Positions 4,480 to 12,245 of a stretch of DNA of 64,000 bases are shown in pieces (the first letter of the stretch is position 1; every line of letters starts with the position of its first letter). The translations under genes and the position numbers were made by a program. The notes under the pieces were generated by a model. The model had not been told where the DNA came from. It ran no database searches and was given only the letters and a program-made list of their open reading frames with translations. Source of the DNA: Botryllus schlosseri (lineage: Eukaryota); assembly GCA_051294905.1 (NCBI GenBank), contig CM119371.1, forward strand, positions 29,576,001-29,640,000. The letters are read 5' to 3'.

Positions 4480-5280
4480 TACTCAACACGTCATCAGCCA
4501 CGGCATAGAAAGGAAATTAACGCAGAAAAACAAACAGAGCCCACCGAACGAACAATAAAAGATGTTTATATCCATCTACCTTGGATTGGCCCTATTTCCA
4601 CCCGCTTTGAAAAACAGTAGATGTCTGCGGTCAGTAAGTGTTACGAGTCTTACGACACAGTCAAAACCAATGTGATTTTTACCACAACACAACTGCTCCC
4701 TTCAACACGCAAAGACGTTCTCCCGGCGCTTCAAAAAAGTAATGTAGTGTACGAATATAAGTGCCACTGTGATTGTGGCTACGTGGGAAGGACGTCAAAA
4801 CGTCTGCAGGAACACATAAACCAACATGTCCCCAGATTTATCAGAACACGTGCATCACGCTAAGTGAAAAGCTCACCCTTAATTCATCCGCTTAAGATTG
4901 ATGCTGATCGACCAAAGGCTATTAATTCTGCCGTTGGCCAACATCTGTTAGATAATCCGATTTGTGCGAATAATTATCGATACGACCGATTTCAAATCAT
5001 TGGGCGGGGCAGTTAACAATTCCATTTGTGTGCCTTGGAGTCGACTTTTATCAAAATACACCGACCAAAACTCTGTCAACAAAAGGAGTTCGTGTACCAC
5101 CTAAAATAGCACATTGAACGCTCTCTCTTGCATGCTGGTGACGTCATATTTTGTGATACGATTGTTGATATACAATGTTCTTTCTAATTCTCTACTAGTT
5201 GCTGACGATTACCCCATGACGAGTGTCAGCCGAAAATATTCGGGTTCATTTCAATATGAATATACTATTCAATCAAATAA
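4480..5280 (+). mobile_element. Penelope-like element 3' fragment (GIY-YIG endonuclease pseudogene plus pseudo-LTR)
   Basis: Translations LPWIGPIS, NVVYEYKCHCDCGYVGRTSKRL..H and SAVGQHLLDNP...LESTFIKIHRPKLCQQKE, with in-frame stops. The 3' end carries a hammerhead-like motif (5211-5245) with a disrupted core. Confidence 0.85.
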
Positions 5281-5670
5281 ATCTCCACATGAGCATACAA
5301 TCCTATATCAATGCCTCTCGTGACTTCCATAGCTGCTTCCCATCTCAACGCTAAACGCCCAAAGACTCTGCTGAGTCTATTGTTTAAGCATAGGAATGAT
5401 TCTCTGACTTACGAATGAATCGTGACAGAGAACGAAATAACTATGTGAATAAGCGCGTATCGCCGCTAGGCAATGTGACAACCAGTTATCAAGGTTATGT
5501 TTATTCTCGTCTTCGTCTGAACAATCTATGTTCACTTCTGGCTGATTACTATTAAATATTATCATTTACGATAGACTTACATGTCTACAGGACCCGAGTT
5601 ACCGATTAGACCTCCTATAGCACTGGTTCCGAACCGTTTCTTAACTTGGTGAACACTTATGGCCGGTATA

Positions 5671-5905
5671 TGTGCAACTTTGCATTTATTCATAGGTTAA
5701 ATACCGTAATAAATGATCAAACTGAAATACAAAAGAACAGTTGCATCGACTAGCCTAATCCCTATTGCTCCAACAACTCACAAGACGTGGGTGCCAATAC
5801 ATACATGCACGCACGTCGCACAATCACAACAACAAGAAGACGAGATCGCTCATGCGTTTAGGGAAACTACTAGAGAGAGAGATAGTAGTAAGAGATAATC
5901 ACACA
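5671..5905 (-). repeat. 3' LTR (235 bp)
   Basis: Direct repeat of 10647-10881, TGTG...CACA termini, adjacent to the PPT. Confidence 0.97.
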
Positions 5906-5920
5906 TCCCCCCCAACTCCT
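5906..5920 (-). other. Polypurine tract
   Basis: Minus strand AGGAGTTGGGGGGGA immediately upstream of the 3' LTR. Confidence 0.9.
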
Positions 5921-6010: not shown

Positions 6011-9000
6011 TCAACATAAAATTTGTGCCCCAATAACGTAGTCCTTGTGCCATACTGGCGGGGTAACATTTCTGCCTGAGCGCTGGCGTCTATTGTTAGA
6101 CGGTGCGGGTACACTAGTGTCGTCGATCGGTACTTCAGCTGGTAGATGATCTTCTGCACTCGATTCGGTGGATCTCAGCAAGCCAGGGTCTACCTCATTC
6201 GACTGTCCACTTAGAGCGGGTGGCGAAACGACTTGAGGTGACGTAGCTGTGCTGGGAGACGAGACCGTTGGCTGAAAATATGTGTGCTTTTGGTTCAGGA
6301 AGTACGGCTCAATCTTGCGTAGAAATTTCCTGTTACGTAGCGTCAATCTGCCGGAACCGTCCACTTTCACGAGGTACTGGTCATGGTCTCGGCACTGAAC
6401 CACAGTGCCGGTTCTGTCCCAGCGAAGGGGGTAACGACCGTTTTGGTTTTGAATGCGACAGACATCACCTTCAAGAAGTGGTGATAATGGCTTAGTGTTC
6501 AACGACAGAGATTCCAGCTGCTTCGCAAATCTGGTACGTAACGTTTGCTCGCGACTCTGCCAGAGATTCCTCCATAATGGCCTGATGTTGCGCTGTGTGA
6601 AAACTGGAACCCATGCTTTGATCGGCAACGCATCTTTCAAAGTCCTGCCAAATACTATTTCTGCAGGGGAGAGTCCATTCGCAGGGTCGGGGCAATTGCG
6701 AAACTGTAGCAATGCCCGAGTAATTGCATCGGTCCGGATGCTGCCATCCTGCGAAATGTTGCCGAGAAGGAGTCGTTTCATCGATTTCACCGCAGCCTCC
6801 GCGCGGCCATTTGACCTGGAGTGGTAGGCTGACGACAGCCTGTGGCGCACCCCCCATTTTCGAAAAAATTCCCGAGTGCTGTGCGCAGCAAACTCGGGTC
6901 CCCCGTCACTGCTAAGTTCTTCGGCCACACCAAACGTGCCGAAGTAACTTCGTAATGCATCTTGGAGTCCGAGGGCTCCAGACGTTTGCCCACCGTGCTT
7001 CACATGGAATATCTCTGGCCAGTTGCTGAAGCGGTCAACAACGACTAAATAGTGGTGGCCTGCAGCGGTGCAATAATCAGCGGCAACAGCTTGGAAAGGG
7101 TAGGTCGGTATGAATGGCTCGGCCGGAGGCATGTATGCTTGACTCGGTGCCATTTTACTGCAGTTGTCACAACGTGCTCGTGTACGTGCTATACACTCAG
7201 TCATCCCAGGCCAAAATACTGTGGCCTGCGCCCTCTGTGACATGGCAGCAGTCCCTTGGTGTGCCGAGTGTAAGATTTCACAGATAACCCCTCGCAGCGG
7301 CGGGGGAACGACAATCCGGTCATTATACATGACAACATCGTCTACGATCGAAAGGTCGTCGCGGTACCGCCAATATGATTGTAGTTGAAAAGGCAGTTTG
7401 TCCGATTTGTCTGGGAATCCTGATATGATGTGATTTTTTAACTCACTGAGAACAGGATCGTATGCCGTACTGCGCTTTACATCGTCCCAGGAGACAACTT
7501 CAATGGCATTCAATGATGCTCGGGAGGCGGCCACGATGCTGATTTCAATCAGATTGGTGTCCTCATGAGAAGCCACGATACTGTCGCAGTGATCCAATGG
7601 CATGTCATCCGCTGGAGATGAGGAAGCAGGGTGCCTGGAGAACGCATCAGATGCAGGAATGAGTTTGCCAGGAACATGGACGACACGGAAGCGCCATGAC
7701 AATGTGCGCTGCTTCAGACGAAAAATCCTTGTGTTAGTAATTTCATCAAGGGAGCGGTCCCCAAAGATTTTTACCAAAGGTTTATGGTCAGTGCAGATGA
7801 TAAGATCGTCACATCCGAGGGTGAAGAACTTCGTATCTTCTAATGCCCATGCGATTCCAAGCGCCTCGCCCTCTATAGAACAATAACGTTGTTCGGCGGA
7901 TCGGAGGAACCTTGAGCCAGCGAGAGTGATTTTCCACCCATGGACGCAACAGTCAGGGGTCAAGGAAACGCATTTGCAGTACTTCTGTCGCAGCCAGTAG
8001 CCAATGCCAGACCTTGACCAGTCCGGGGTCAGGCACGTTCTTCTAGCGGGGTCAAAGATACGTACTCCATCTTTGATTGCGTTGATGAGCTCGAGCTTGG
8101 AGTTCGCGAATGCATCATCAAGTTCGGAAGTCCAGCAAAATGGAGTTTTCTCGCTTAGTAACGGTTTGAATGGTGCCATAATGGTAGAAAGCCGGCCATA
8201 ATGAGAAACCTGGTTGACCAGCCCAAACCATGCACGTATATCTGCGATTTTTGTTGGCCGTGGGAAGCACTGTATTGCTTCCAAGTATTTGGGCAGAGGG
8301 CGAACATTCTCGGCAGTAATTTCGAAGCCGGCGAACTCGATATGTCTGCGGCAGAACTGGAACTTGGAGGCGTTTAGGATGATACCTTCACGGCCCATTA
8401 ATTCTAGATAGTCAATCATCCTCCACCAGTGCGTGGCAAGGTCATCGTCCCAGAGGACCGTGTCGTCCACGCACTTCGTTTTGCGTGGTGTGTCGGCAAT
8501 GATGCTGTCGTAGCGGTAAGCGTACCCGTCGCCACTGGCTAGGTATCCCTGCGGGGCCACTCTATACCGATATCTCCCGAACTCAGTGATGAATGTCAGA
8601 AGGTGTCTGTCCTCTTCACGCACGGGCACGGAATGGTAGCCATTCCAGGCATCTGTGACAGACCTGTAAGTGTTTGGAGGTATCGAGCGTGCTTGTTTGA
8701 AAGGAGGCACAACATGGTGTGTTTCTCGAGAGCAGGAGCGGTTCAGCGATTGGAAGTCAACAACTCTCCTCGGGCTGCCATCTGCCTTGCGCACCCATAT
8801 GGCCCTATGACACCAGGTCGTTGGCGTGTTCGGCTCCACTTTTTCAATCACCCCTAATTTTACGTCCGCCTCCAACTGCTTCTCGATTTCCTCTTTCCAA
8901 TGAAGTGGAATGGGAGCCGGTGTGTGGACTGCAGTCGGTGTTGCCGACGGATCGATATGAATGGAAATAGGCGGCCCAGTCATGGTTGGTAGTGGGCTGT

Positions 9001-10621
9001 GTTTGCACTTGTTGAATGTGGATGATGCATACCTCTCAAGTAACCACTGCTTCATTTTATCCACATTCTCCGCACAAGGCTGGAATGGCAGCTGCTGGGG
9101 GCGTGGAGGAGGCGTGGACCTCCGTGGGCAGCTACATGTTTGATGCGGGTTACCCTCAAGGGTTGACTCTCGTGTTGCGTGGAGTGCCGCTGCCCCAATT
9201 TGAGGAAAATCGGGCCCAATGATGCCCAACTTCTGCATGGCATCTCGGCTAAGGTAGAAGAGTTTCGTAGAATCCGTAATGTATACCATCTCAGCGGTTT
9301 CTATGACATCGCCAGAAACTGCTGCACCCGAAAGTCGCAGAAACACAGCGCCCAGGATGTGGATACACTCATCATTAGCTGCAACCAAGCGTTTCTTTAC
9401 CGGGATGAGATGCTGGTCCTTGAAGCCGCATGCTCGAAACAGTTTCAATCCCATCAAGGATGATTGTGCACCAGTGTCTGATATCGCCTTTATCTTTTTG
9501 GGCGATATTTTGGGACGCTGGATATTGAACTGGGCATAATCGGCTTGCCGGGTGGAGACCAAAAGATCAATGGTCGGTTGTGCCTTGCAGTCTTTCAGCA
9601 GCCATCCGTATGTGCCATCGAATATGTGGTGGTCTAATATGATTTCCGAAGCATGAGATTCTACAGTGTTTTTGGTACGGTTGGATACTGAAGCGATATT
9701 GATACTAGAAGCGGTGCCAGTACTAGGTGTCTCCGATTGGTTGCTTTGTCTCCAGCAGGCTAGACATTGTTTAAACTCGCGCAACCTCGGCTTACCAAAC
9801 TTCCCATGCAAGAATTTATACTTCTTCATGACACTGCCACATTTTCCACATTTGATGACTTGAGAGAGATCGGGCAACGGCGTGCCAGTAGAAGTGCTGG
9901 CCGCAACGCTAGATTCATGCTGATTTCTCAATGTGGAGGAGGTGGCACGTAGAGCTAATTCCTTGTTTTCAATAATCTGGACAGTTTCGTCCAGCGATTT
10001 TGCATCGAGATTTGCAACACTAAGGACTTGCCGCTGAACCTCATCATCAGCCAGGCCGGCGATGACAATATGCTTAACAATTCTATCAGAAAAGTCATTG
10101 ACTTGGGTGCAGCCAGGCTTCGTGCAATTCATTTGAAATGAGCAAATTCTTGCAGACGCTTTCACCTCGGCTAGAAATGCACTGAAGGACTGTCCTTGAT
10201 CCTGCTGGGCCGAAAATAGAGCAACGGTGCGCATGCTTGTGGCGATTTTGACAACTGCTAGAGATTCAATAGCTTTCAGCATATCACCTTCACTGACCTG
10301 ATTGAAGTCACCGACTTGTTTGAAGAGGTCGTTCGATAAAGTGATCTCGCAGCATTGCCAAAGGTGGCTCTTGATTAGTATGTCGGGTATCTCGGTCCCT
10401 TTTTTAAAATCATCCCATTTTCTGAGGAATATTTGCCATTCCACGGCAGTGGAGCCACGCGAAATGACGGGTCGTTCCATGACAGGTGGTCTCGAACGCG
10501 AGACATGAGGACCTGTTGTGTGGATTGTAGCATGGATATTGAGCTGTGTGACGGCGCCGGCCGTATCTTCGGATTCAGTCTCATAATTGCAGTCTTGGAT
10601 TGGGCAAGAAAGCTTCGGCAT
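6011..10621 (-). CDS. Gag-Pol polyprotein, 1536 aa (Gag, aspartic protease, RT, RNase H, integrase)
   Basis: Protease AISDTGAQ; RT TDAWNGYHSV, APQG and CVDD; RNase H PDWS, EGEALG, TDHKPL, ASDAFSR; integrase HSAH...CDNC, AADY, SDGGPEF, GRAEAAV. No stops or frameshifts. Confidence 0.96.
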   Translation of the reverse strand: MPKLSCPIQDCNYETESEDTAGAVTQLNIHATIHTTGPHVSRSRPPVMERPVISRGSTAVEWQIFLRKWDDFKKGTEIPDILIKSHLWQCCEITLSNDLFKQVGDFNQVSEGDMLKAIESLAVVKIATSMRTVALFSAQQDQGQSFSAFLAEVKASARICSFQMNCTKPGCTQVNDFSDRIVKHIVIAGLADDEVQRQVLSVANLDAKSLDETVQIIENKELALRATSSTLRNQHESSVAASTSTGTPLPDLSQVIKCGKCGSVMKKYKFLHGKFGKPRLREFKQCLACWRQSNQSETPSTGTASSINIASVSNRTKNTVESHASEIILDHHIFDGTYGWLLKDCKAQPTIDLLVSTRQADYAQFNIQRPKISPKKIKAISDTGAQSSLMGLKLFRACGFKDQHLIPVKKRLVAANDECIHILGAVFLRLSGAAVSGDVIETAEMVYITDSTKLFYLSRDAMQKLGIIGPDFPQIGAAALHATRESTLEGNPHQTCSCPRRSTPPPRPQQLPFQPCAENVDKMKQWLLERYASSTFNKCKHSPLPTMTGPPISIHIDPSATPTAVHTPAPIPLHWKEEIEKQLEADVKLGVIEKVEPNTPTTWCHRAIWVRKADGSPRRVVDFQSLNRSCSRETHHVVPPFKQARSIPPNTYRSVTDAWNGYHSVPVREEDRHLLTFITEFGRYRYRVAPQGYLASGDGYAYRYDSIIADTPRKTKCVDDTVLWDDDLATHWWRMIDYLELMGREGIILNASKFQFCRRHIEFAGFEITAENVRPLPKYLEAIQCFPRPTKIADIRAWFGLVNQVSHYGRLSTIMAPFKPLLSEKTPFCWTSELDDAFANSKLELINAIKDGVRIFDPARRTCLTPDWSRSGIGYWLRQKYCKCVSLTPDCCVHGWKITLAGSRFLRSAEQRYCSIEGEALGIAWALEDTKFFTLGCDDLIICTDHKPLVKIFGDRSLDEITNTRIFRLKQRTLSWRFRVVHVPGKLIPASDAFSRHPASSSPADDMPLDHCDSIVASHEDTNLIEISIVAASRASLNAIEVVSWDDVKRSTAYDPVLSELKNHIISGFPDKSDKLPFQLQSYWRYRDDLSIVDDVVMYNDRIVVPPPLRGVICEILHSAHQGTAAMSQRAQATVFWPGMTECIARTRARCDNCSKMAPSQAYMPPAEPFIPTYPFQAVAADYCTAAGHHYLVVVDRFSNWPEIFHVKHGGQTSGALGLQDALRSYFGTFGVAEELSSDGGPEFAAHSTREFFRKWGVRHRLSSAYHSRSNGRAEAAVKSMKRLLLGNISQDGSIRTDAITRALLQFRNCPDPANGLSPAEIVFGRTLKDALPIKAWVPVFTQRNIRPLWRNLWQSREQTLRTRFAKQLESLSLNTKPLSPLLEGDVCRIQNQNGRYPLRWDRTGTVVQCRDHDQYLVKVDGSGRLTLRNRKFLRKIEPYFLNQKHTYFQPTVSSPSTATSPQVVSPPALSGQSNEVDPGLLRSTESSAEDHLPAEVPIDDTSVPAPSNNRRQRSGRNVTPPVWHKDYVIGAQILC

Positions 10622-10636
10622 GGTTAATCCGTATTA

Positions 10637-10646
10637 AGTTTGATCA
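10637..10646 (-). other. Non-tRNA primer-binding site (TGATCAAACT), putative self-priming site
   Basis: Directly follows the 5' LTR on the element strand. Lacks the TGG expected for a tRNA CCA end. Is the exact reverse complement of LTR sequence 10699-10690. Confidence 0.75.
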
Positions 10647-10881
10647 TGTGCAACTTTGCATTTATTCATAGGTTAAATACCGTAATAAATGATCAAACTG
10701 AAATACAAAAGAACAGTTGCATCGACTAGCCTAATCCCTATTGCTCCAACAACTCACAAGACGTGGGTGCCAATACATACATGCACGCACGTCGCACAAT
10801 CACAACAACAAGAAGACGAGATCGCTCATGCGTTTAGGGAAACTACTAGAGAGAGAGATAGTAGTAAGAGATAATCACACA
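10647..10881 (-). repeat. 5' LTR (235 bp) with Inr-like TCAGTT and AATAAA
   Basis: Element strand has TTTCAGTTTGATCA (A at 10699) and AATAAA at 10666-10661. No canonical TATA box seen. Confidence 0.95.
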
Positions 10882-11529
10882 GTATACAATGAGTAAAAGC
10901 TATGCAAAGCTCAGTACACACGCACTGCCGGCGTAAATCATTCGCAGCCAGGTGTGACCTGCGATTATTCCTTCATAAATACACATTCCCGGCTCCCGGT
11001 CAGGTCACTAGTCTGGTACGGTGTACTTGAGAAAACTTCGTCGATTGCTTACGAACTTTGATCCAAGCTATAAGGCAATGCCTGGCACTGTATGCAAAGT
11101 TGCGCAGCACAGTCTTCCATCAACGGATTTCGCAGCAGATGAATTAATCCGAAAAAGATACAACCGATTTCAAACCAATGTTTTTTTTTGATAGACTCAT
11201 CAAGATGACTAGGATTTCATCGTGATCAAAATATCAAATCTGCTCGCCTGTCTATACTATTCCTTACCAGTAGTATCCCTCTTGTTGTTGTAGAACAAAT
11301 GTGTATTGTAATTAAATTTTCACACAAAAACGAGAACAATTATGAATGTTTATTGTATATCGGCGTGACGCTTGCTGTTTCCTTTCAGAGACCAGTACAG
11401 AACTGCGAGGTTTCACCTTTGAAAGTGTTATCAATGTTAGCATATTGTTCGGTCGAAACGCCACAGCGGTATACCATGCAGTCGCCTAATTGCAAATTGC
11501 TCATATCTGTTGAGGATAGTTGCATTTCG

Positions 11530-12245
11530 GAAGGTGCCAATGTGACTGTGGCAGCGTGGGAAGAACGTCACATCGATCGCAGAAAGGCATAAAACAGCAT
11601 GCACATAGATTTACTAAAACACCCGCATCACGATCAGAGAAAATCTCACCCTTGACTCATCCCATGAAGCTTGATTCAGAACACGCAAATGCCATGAATT
11701 CTGCGATTGGCAAACATTTGTCGGATAATCCTGTTTGTGCGAAACATTATCTAGACGACAGACTTCACGTCGTCGGAAGAGGACTCTCACAGTTTCATTT
11801 GTGTGCCTTCTGCCTTGGAGTCAACTTTTATCAAATTGCACCAGCCAAGTCTGGGGCAACAGAAAAATTTCCTGTGCCGTCTGAAAATGTCACTGACATT
11901 GAGCTTGAACGGTGTCTTCGTCTCAAATTTTCGAAGGTTCGTTCCTGTGACGTCACATTTTGTGATACAACTGTTGATAATTGAATAGTTTATTCATATT
12001 GAAATGAACTAGTTGCTGACGATTAGGCTTACCCCTGACGAGTGCCAGCCGACAATATTCGGATTCATTTAAGTATGAATATACTATTCCATTGTATATT
12101 GGAGTTCTGTACCTCCTAGAAGATGTTAAATTGTTGATAAACAATAACTTTCAAATTCTCCACTAGATGCTGATGATTATTATTTCTGACCAAGGTCAGC
12201 CGTACATATTCACGTTCATTTTAATATGAATATACTATTCAATAT
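11530..12245 (+). mobile_element. Degenerate Penelope-like fragment (GIY-YIG) with two tandem pseudo-LTR copies
   Basis: CQCDCGSVGRTS...SAIGKHLSDNPVC...LESTFIKLHQP, homologous to 4480-5280. Two copies of the 3' motif (12010-12090, 12163-12245) with mutated hammerhead cores. Confidence 0.8.

Follow-up and report, generated by a model that had tools for sequence, protein, structure and literature searches.

Levin is said to have found, in 1995 and 1996, that the primer of the Tf1 element is 11 nt long and is freed by RNase H. In retroviruses and Ty elements, plus-strand strong-stop DNA may be copied past the primer binding site (PBS) into the tRNA, which leaves relics of the primer, and retroposed genes of dinoflagellates hold relics of the spliced leader (SL) that entered genomic DNA through reverse transcription. 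Parts of two papers (PMC4600332, PMC6317226) describe self-priming for Tf1 and Tf2 of S. pombe, Tj1 of S. japonicus and the Tf1/sushi group, and predict it for the plant Tcn1 and TAR lineages. Concerning the C. elegans element Cer1, parts of a third paper (PMC3315495) report that a spliced 2.4-kb mRNA carries SL1 and that the 8-kb genomic RNA is not trans-spliced, and a tRNA-Pro PBS is proposed there. No description of an SL as part of a retroelement primer was found in PMC papers or preprints, subscription journals, repeat-library or Repbase notes and supplements lying outside the search; neither a paper on Echinococcus TRIM elements (PMC4558846) nor one on errantiviruses (PMC13524379) links an SL to priming. 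The SL-chimeric primer proposed below is new, while Tf1-type self-priming itself was already known.

The DNA analysed here, called the window, is the whole stretch of 64,000 nt introduced above. Its minus strand carries a complete Ty3/gypsy-type LTR retrotransposon of 5,235 bp, the features of which are collected in Table 1. The domain order PR-RT-RNase H-IN, LTRs with TG..CA ends, a short target site duplication (TSD) and a polypurine tract (PPT) place it in Ty3/gypsy (Metaviridae). The direct repeat as computed is 236 nt long and 100% identical (5670-5905 versus 10646-10881), whereas the true LTR, TG..CA, has 235 nt; the 236th identical base is due to chance, since it is the first base of the TSD. 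In the 1,536-aa ORF product, Pfam recognised RT (residues 610-768), RNase H (857-966), the integrase zinc domain (1105-1159) and the integrase core (1190-1268), and the most similar solved structure was Ty3 Gag-Pol (7q5b, E 3.4e-42). No chromodomain (PF00385) was found in the last 296 aa at E up to 10, nor by Pfam in the whole protein. The element thus lacks the chromodomain at the integrase C-terminus that characterises Tf1/sushi chromoviruses, and it has the single gag-pol ORF that is a criterion of the Mag clade and is also found in Tf1. A preliminary description of the locus had called the element Mag-like, a label on which the LTR termini published for Mag A and Mag C (PMC3601003) do not decide. 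It had also reported a single ORF without visible chromodomain and a leader of 25 nt between the LTR end and the ATG, and our results agree on both points. Among the 32 best genomic protein matches, 8, including the copy in the window, span residues 1-1536 without a stop, at 95-100% identity; the family is young and the element was recently active.

As in Tf1/Tf2, Tj1 and the Tf1/sushi group, to the extent that the parts of the papers cited above describe them, there is no tRNA PBS, and a site after the LTR is complementary to the element's own RNA near its start, within the LTR. The R/U5 sequence enclosed by this pairing forms a loop, which the same sources give for the Tf1/sushi group.

Table 1. 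Coordinates of the element's features in the window.
Feature	Position	Strand	Basis
5' LTR, 235 nt, TGTG...CACA	10647..10881	-	direct repeat, 100% identical to 5671-5905
3' LTR	5671..5905	-	direct repeat and ends read
TSD TATAC, 5 bp	10882..10886, second copy 5666-5670	-	ends read in sequence
PPT aggagttggggggga, adjoining the 3' LTR	5906..5920	-	sequence; RNA reads link the tract with the LTR start
Single gag-pol ORF, 1,536 aa: protease-like, RT, RNase H, integrase	6011..10621	-	ORF and domain searches
PBS, 16 nt: TGATCAAA, complementary to where the element's R begins, + CTTAATAC, complementary to the final 8 nt of the host SL	10631..10646	-	
Element-encoded part of the proposed primer, TTTGATCA + T	10689..10697	-	complement of 10647-10639; co-varies in the sister family
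Splice-acceptor-like tract ttcttttgtatttCAG	10698..10716	-	CAG at 10700-10698; SL junction directly after AG in all read-through copies
Putative R region, 51 nt	10647..10697	-	first base past the acceptor to the LTR end

Pairing between the LTR and the post-LTR site

On the element strand the LTR ends in ...gttgcaca at 10647, and TGATCAAACTTAATAC follows at 10646-10631, with no TGG. Inside the LTR, AGTTTGATCAT at 10699-10689 is the exact reverse complement of 10647-10637, over 11 nt, the 11th pair involving A10647, the final base of the LTR. This 11-mer has 3 sites in the window, namely both LTR copies and the complement at the post-LTR site, compared to an expectation of 0.04 from dinucleotide shuffles; 0 of 100 shuffles attained 3. 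The preliminary description had pointed out a post-LTR site without TGG that is exactly complementary to the element's own LTR at 10699-10689, which both the sequence and the shuffles bear out. It had further described a closed loop of 43 nt, which is correct for a helix of 10 bp, the 11-bp helix enclosing 41 nt. Of the two pairings it had placed within the loop, TGCAA/TTGCA and TTTATT/AATAAA, both occur as sequences, but the first leaves a loop of just 2 nt and is absent from the predicted minimum-energy fold.

An AATAAA lies at 10666-10661, 14 nt before the LTR end, and the distance is the same 14 nt in a sister family of the same genome (see below). This position in both families suggests that R extends to the LTR end. 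The R stretch is conserved in the sister family, and U3 is not.

Genomic copies, primer relics and the spliced leader

We aligned 31 genomic copies of the LTR-PBS region of the element. The exact 16-mer PBS occurs 34 times genome-wide, each time directly after the LTR of the window's family: 33 occurrences are preceded by GTTGCACA and the 34th (L076) by a variant of the LTR end, this last copy being itself a read-through copy in the sense given below. Among these 34 exact occurrences, none was a separate host gene carrying the complement of the 16-mer. What follows the PBS is of two kinds. In 23 of the 34 copies it is the element's own leader (at most 1 mismatch), and in 10 it is the complement of the host SL, identified below; in the remaining copy, L084, the leader has diverged.

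The aberrant copies retain the LTR and TGATCAAACTTAATAC, and then read AACCAAATACTCC... instead of the element leader GGATTAACCATG. They contain 3 to 15 further nucleotides of SL complement, after which internal element sequence begins at differing points: in the integrase (L022), in the RT (L023) or in the linker between RNase H and integrase (L024, L026, L027), while in L025 and L031 the SL complement is followed by an inverted piece of the element. The joined ends share 0-6 nt of microhomology, and no read-through past the 5' end of the SL was seen, both in the copies read. L022 is short and complete, with both LTRs and a polypurine tract. The relic string TGATCAAA + CTTAATACAACCAAATACTCCAA had 11 genomic matches with at most 2 mismatches, versus 0 for the control. 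Its second part is constant, even beside a different LTR, and its first 8 nt vary among LTR families, matching in each case the LTR of their own family.

The reverse complement of the constant part, the 23-mer TTGGAGTATTTGGTTGTATTAAG, had 447 genomic matches with at most 1 mismatch, and its reversed control had 0. In the 30 loci read, the 5' edge lies exactly at TTGG every time; 18 of them have GT directly after the 23-mer, and in 16 an Sm-like site (AATTTTGG and variants) lies 33-59 nt beyond it, with a GGACC...GGTC hairpin behind that site. No Rfam family matched the six loci submitted. A table of SL consensus sequences, the part of PMC3795323 used here (Table 1), has the entry 'Chordata 1, GATTGGAGTATTTGGTTGTATTAAG, 25 nt, 7/7', a consensus common to seven chordate species, and the 23-mer is contained in it. 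By its sequence and genomic setting, the constant part of the relics is the 23-nt SL of the host.

Overcopying of the primer by plus-strand strong-stop DNA leaves just such a pattern, so that the extra sequence after the PBS should be the complement of the primer. Retroviral and Ty read-through relics are built alike: past the PBS come additional nucleotides copied from the primer, and then an aberrant strand transfer. Unlike in those relics, the extra nucleotides complement an SL and not a tRNA, and they are found in 10 of the family's 34 PBS copies. Upstream of TTTGATCA, as read from the relics, stands the SL (...GTATTAAG) and not the LTR (...GTATTTCAG). The relics consequently record an RNA in which the SL was joined exactly after the AG at 10699-10698. 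At least in the aberrant read-through events, the primer is, judging from these DNA copies, a trans-spliced 5' end.

The SL-R junction accounts for the whole PBS: the last 8 nt of the SL together with LTR positions 10697-10690 form the exact complement of 10646-10631. The 10-nt LTR match of the preliminary description arose because the AG of the acceptor coincides with the terminal AG of the SL. Pairing of the PBS with the 5' end of the element's own transcript rather than with a tRNA, as it had proposed, agrees with the LTR pairing and the co-variation, with the correction that the paired segment includes the SL. Its other proposal, an RNA that starts at 10699 and primes with its first 10-11 nt, conflicts with a 16-nt site complementary to SL plus R and with relics that carry the complement of the whole SL. 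In these DNA copies 23-25 nt of SL lie upstream of the complementary stretch, which is then not the very first segment of the RNA. With a pyrimidine tract in front of it, the CAG at 10700-10698 looks like a trans-splice acceptor rather than a proven start site. The CAG-containing tract at 10698..10716 is the sequence that had been taken for an initiator, TCAGTT.

When an RNA consisting of SL, R and PBS was modelled, an 18-bp helix was predicted (the 16 nt, the pair A10647-U10689 and one G-U), with a minimum free energy of −31.6 kcal/mol (z −3.8 versus 200 shuffles); the duplex alone gave −22.6.

A host tRNA, a tRNA fragment or some other small RNA priming at 10646-10631, the usual mechanism of LTR elements, is hardly credible here. 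The site has no TGG, the 64-kb window contains no tRNA gene, and 34 of 34 exact 16-mers stand in the element's own LTR context. Moreover the first 8 nt of the PBS co-vary with the LTR of the family, which is impossible for a common host RNA. Our first idea was a host small RNA that primes at a 16-nt PBS; we gave it up when 8 of these nucleotides proved specific to the family and the SL was recognised.

Pairing between the 5' end and the leader of retroviral RNAs is used for cyclisation, dimerisation, packaging and translational control. With this precedent, and priming being deduced here from sequence, the complementarity might serve one of these ends and the true primer be another. We regard this as very improbable. 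The whole complement of SL plus R sits directly after the sense LTR end, exactly at the position of a copied primer, and only the copying of a primer annealed to the PBS yields the order and orientation seen in the relics. A tRNA-type PBS and any other genomic source of the complement are both missing.

Five further copies (L036, L038, L041, L079 and L080) contain SL-complement relics and have no matching AG+8-mer in the 75-300 nt searched upstream of each. They may be old copies, or may have been primed by another RNA.

Sister family, third lineage and metagenome relatives

The same genome contains a sister family with 62% aa identity, of which several frames of 1,561-1,565 aa are open. Its LTR reads ...tttatttaCAG|CTTAATCA, the junction being at the same −53 position as in the window's element, and its post-LTR site is TGATTAAG+CTTAATAC (L075, L037, L039, L081-L083). 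Two compensating changes distinguish the R/PBS pairing of the two families. SL read-through was found here too (L037, L039, L077, L078, L081-L083), with 4-15 or more SL nucleotides. Three intact sister copies (L072-L074) have TGATTAAACTTCATAC, with 14 matches out of 16 and 2 mismatches.

A third, more distant lineage has frames of 1,581 aa and an LTR reading ctctacAG|ATCCTAGTCAT. After this LTR comes TGACTAG-CGCTC-TAATAC, that is 8 nt of complement to its own R, 5 mismatched nucleotides, and the SL hexamer in register; the mismatched stretch between the complementary blocks was seen in intact copies. The pattern TGACTAG-N5-TAATACAAC had 7 matches, versus 0 in the control, and every one of the 7 has an N5 ending in CT and so contains the full SL complement. 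In three of these copies (L168, L169, L171) the copy's own LTR agrees with the primer-derived 10 nt at 9 positions. It agrees at only 7 of 10 in L170, which suggests that the primer in that case came from the RNA of another family member. For L166, L167 and L172, no matching LTR sequence was found within the 90 nt examined. Because L072-L074 and the intact copies of the third lineage carry mismatches, the PBS is not always renewed from the primer.

Of 8,000 candidates scored in a search for protein relatives, 1,750 had E up to 1e-20. The best 120 of the 1,750, with 51-92% identity over RT-IN and mostly about 1,000-1,700 aa long, had no chromodomain in precomputed Pfam lists, in which they and the element differ from the Tf1/sushi chromoviruses. 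Metagenome contigs were scanned, and 78 loci obtained; 41 of them match from residues 1-5, and for 34 of the 41 the contig offers 150 nt or more of upstream sequence. Of these 34, 21 have a perfect inverted pair between LTR and post-LTR site that is 11 nt or longer, with a loop of 25-90 nt (compared to 8 of 1,700 shuffles); with 9 nt as the lower limit the count is 22 of the 34 (96 of 1,700 shuffles). At least 6 of the misses carry no information, since the contig is rotated and its 'upstream' part is coding. Between the 3' arm and the ATG there are 18-63 nt in 20 loci and about 190 nt in two. The arms comprise 17 different sequences; all end in ...AT, nearly all in ...CAT, and this AT pairs with the AT formed at the junction by the last LTR base and the first post-LTR base.

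The preliminary description had put forward, as a check, a look at R and PBS in related families: in the sister family the pairing is kept through two compensating changes, and 21 of the 34 metagenome relatives have such a pairing with differing sequences. Self-priming of the window's element is supported by this co-variation. It looks like a trait of the whole chromodomain-less clade, single-ORF elements of about 1,550 aa from marine samples, to go by the inverted pairs. The earlier suggestion that self-priming was possibly acquired independently is doubtful, the trait being common to so wide a clade. Two things are new: self-priming looks widespread in a large chromodomain-less clade (21/34 loci), and in an SL-trans-splicing host the primer probably includes the host leader. 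Evidence for the leader-chimeric primer is limited to the genome of the window.

In 21 of the 22 relatives with an inverted pair, whose contexts were read by eye, an AG preceded by T-rich sequence lies no more than 2 nt from the start of the 5' arm; an AG so placed would fit a splice acceptor or an initiator equally. No leader complement common to families was evident after the PBS in the metagenome relatives. L131 and L141 have their arms in common, and the sequence directly after the arms differs.

RNA reads and the proposed priming reaction

We think it quite probable that the element uses Tf1-like self-priming with an RNA whose 5' end is made by SL trans-splicing. What the DNA shows directly is that the two sites are complementary, that SL and R are joined exactly in genomic copies, that the pairing co-varies and that the leader is the host SL. 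The transcript would begin upstream, in U3 or in flanking DNA, and would be trans-spliced at the CAG at 10700-10698, so that the genomic RNA would start with the host SL of 23-25 nt and continue with R from 10697 onward. The last 8-9 nt of the SL and the first 8-9 nt of R would anneal to A10647 and the 16-nt PBS in a helix of 18 bp, either by folding back or by pairing in trans to a second RNA packaged alongside. The RNase H domain, if it acts as in Tf1, would cut after nucleotide 8-9 of R, and the 3' end produced would be extended. The plus strand, primed at the PPT, would copy the LTR and the first 16 nt of the primer, by which the PBS would be regenerated. A plus strand extended further, over the 5' segment of the SL that stays unpaired, would acquire a mismatched 3' end, which would land elsewhere by way of 0-6 nt of microhomology and give 5'-deleted or rearranged copies that keep the SL complement. 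We infer that the genomic RNA is trans-spliced in vivo, that RNase H makes the cut, that R extends to the LTR end, and that SL-bearing RNA is the primer in productive cycles too.

Such a reaction differs from that of Tf1 in several respects. The paired 5' segment is a chimera of host SL and element, the pairing extends over 16-18 bp and not 11, and the primer would be about 31-34 nt long, capped, and with an unpaired 5' tail. The host SL reaches genomic DNA via reverse transcription, as in the dinoflagellate relics, and the RNA of an LTR element can be a substrate of SL trans-splicing, as is Cer1 RNA in the part of its description cited above. In dinoflagellates and in Cer1 the SL has the sense orientation, or is a feature of the mRNA only, whereas here its complement occupies the position of the PBS.

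If the scheme is true, the acceptor inside the LTR fixes the 5' end of the genomic RNA whatever the transcription start, trans-splicing provides half of the primer, and the SL complement after the LTR is a DNA signature that records the primer. The element would be the first retroelement with a host-element chimeric primer RNA made by splicing, and its host-specific PBS a possible barrier to transfer between hosts with different leaders. If productive cycles use the SL-bearing RNA, then it is host RNA processing, and not the promoter, that sets the replication-competent 5' end; the PBS must track the SL of the host, and frequent read-through (10/34 copies) is a built-in cost. We lean towards the view that a chromodomain-less gypsy-type lineage, living in an SL-trans-splicing host, has tied its replication to the host SL, with a PBS that evolved to match the SL-R junction. 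For the annotation of elements in SL-using animals, this gives a rule: post-LTR sites without tRNA match are to be compared with the 3' end of the SL joined to the LTR sequence that follows an AG.

RNA data over 10400-10900 consisted of one raw-read RNA run, of which about 6% was read, and of contigs from three other runs. In the raw-read run, depth counted in both read directions was about 45-115 over the LTR and about 1-2 over the PBS and element leader. There, 34 reads link the polypurine-tract region with the LTR start, and 24 pass the LTR end into varied sequence; together with the thin leader depth, this indicates that most LTR reads stem from 3' or solo LTRs. The stretch 10689-10705 is covered by roughly 50 reads. 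At 10697-10699 they revealed no joint, no pile-up of starts or ends and none of the loose ends listed, a list from which 15 weaker ones were left off, at a leader depth of only about 1-2, and the contigs of the three other runs pass 10698 collinear with the genome. This means that most LTR-containing RNA in the sampled run is not spliced at 10698. With about 1-2x depth over the leader, the run has little power, and neither shows nor excludes the SL junction.

These reads bear on a simpler scheme, plain Tf1-like self-priming, in which the productive RNA starts at A10699 within TCAGTT and primes with its first 10-11 nt. Transcripts begun further upstream would on occasion be trans-spliced, and such SL-bearing RNAs, when they prime, would give rise only to defective copies. 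TCAGTT suits an initiator, the SL junction was not seen in the RNA run (at about 1-2x leader depth), and the metagenome relatives, with a 5' arm within 2 nt of AG in 21 of 22, display no common leader complement. Every SL relic seen sits in a defective copy. The long unpaired SL tail is also awkward for plus-strand transfer, which it would impede, and a mechanism that avoids read-through is not evident in the data; the SL-primed events could for these reasons all be dead ends. We nevertheless hold plain self-priming to be unlikely, though worth keeping in mind. A start at the A would leave unpaired 5' bases in those relatives whose complement begins directly after the AG. Furthermore, copies with a normal leader, that of the window included, have 6 extra PBS nucleotides (TAATAC) that match the SL and not the LTR upstream. 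A match of this kind at a fixed register arises by chance about 1 time in 4,096, and TAATAC stands in register in the sister family and in the third lineage too.

Source of the primer in L170

L170, a third-lineage copy that carries a relic of complementarity to the host spliced leader (SL) after its LTR, differs from its own LTR at 3 positions of the 10 primer-derived nt that follow the LTR, and is identical over these 10 nt to L168, another such copy. Being unlike the copy's own LTR while matching L168, this sequence hints that the primer may come from another co-packaged RNA, i.e. that priming may take place in trans.

Leader loci and leader-headed repeats

Thirty of the 447 matches of the 23-nt leader in the host genome (L042-L071) were read. 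The leader was flanked there by interchangeable conserved modules, one upstream block being paired with various downstream blocks, and the reverse: L063 joins an L046-type upstream block to an L054-type body, and L064 an L054-type upstream block to an L044-type body. The GT was mutated in several of the units. The units may represent scattered SL RNA genes that repeats have carried along or shuffled; alternatively, they may be repeats derived from SL RNA.

At L048 and L050, the leader stood in sense orientation at the start of a repeat, immediately 3′ of a (TAA)n-like tract. L067 was grouped with them as a leader-headed repeat, and L040 and L049 represent a different type from L048 and L050. 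Across the leader-headed families, the ∼10 nt directly 3′ of the leader were variable. These repeats appear to have arisen by retroposition of trans-spliced RNAs from a transposon, possibly a microsatellite-targeting non-LTR element.

Features of the element and its surroundings

Just 5′ of the CAG acceptor, the LTR reads TTGTATTtcAG (10701-10712, minus strand), compared to TTGTATTaAG at the 3′ end of the leader. The likeness could be due to chance in T-rich sequence, or to an old leader relic inside the LTR. A 1,931-nt contig (runs X1 and X3) has 30 nt of the inferred R in common with the element (10692-10663), departs from it within AATAAA and is unrelated to it from there on. Mean word depth was 12.3 for this contig and 8.67 for the one that runs from R into the element's gag.

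The Gag N-terminus holds a C-x4-C ... H-x4-H motif (CPIQDC...HATIH), whose Cys and His are retained in the consensus of seven relatives, and for which Pfam gave no named domain. The element itself is flanked by a 276-nt direct repeat, 74% identical (4761-5036 and 11534-11809, spacing 6,773 nt), and may have inserted in or near an older repeat.

Location of the L170 copy and of the Gag motif
Feature	Location	Strand	Residues
L170	host genome (G000), C12:5707722-5707861		
C-x4-C ... H-x4-H motif	window, about 10520-10609	minus	5-34 of P0001, the 1,536-aa gag-pol protein
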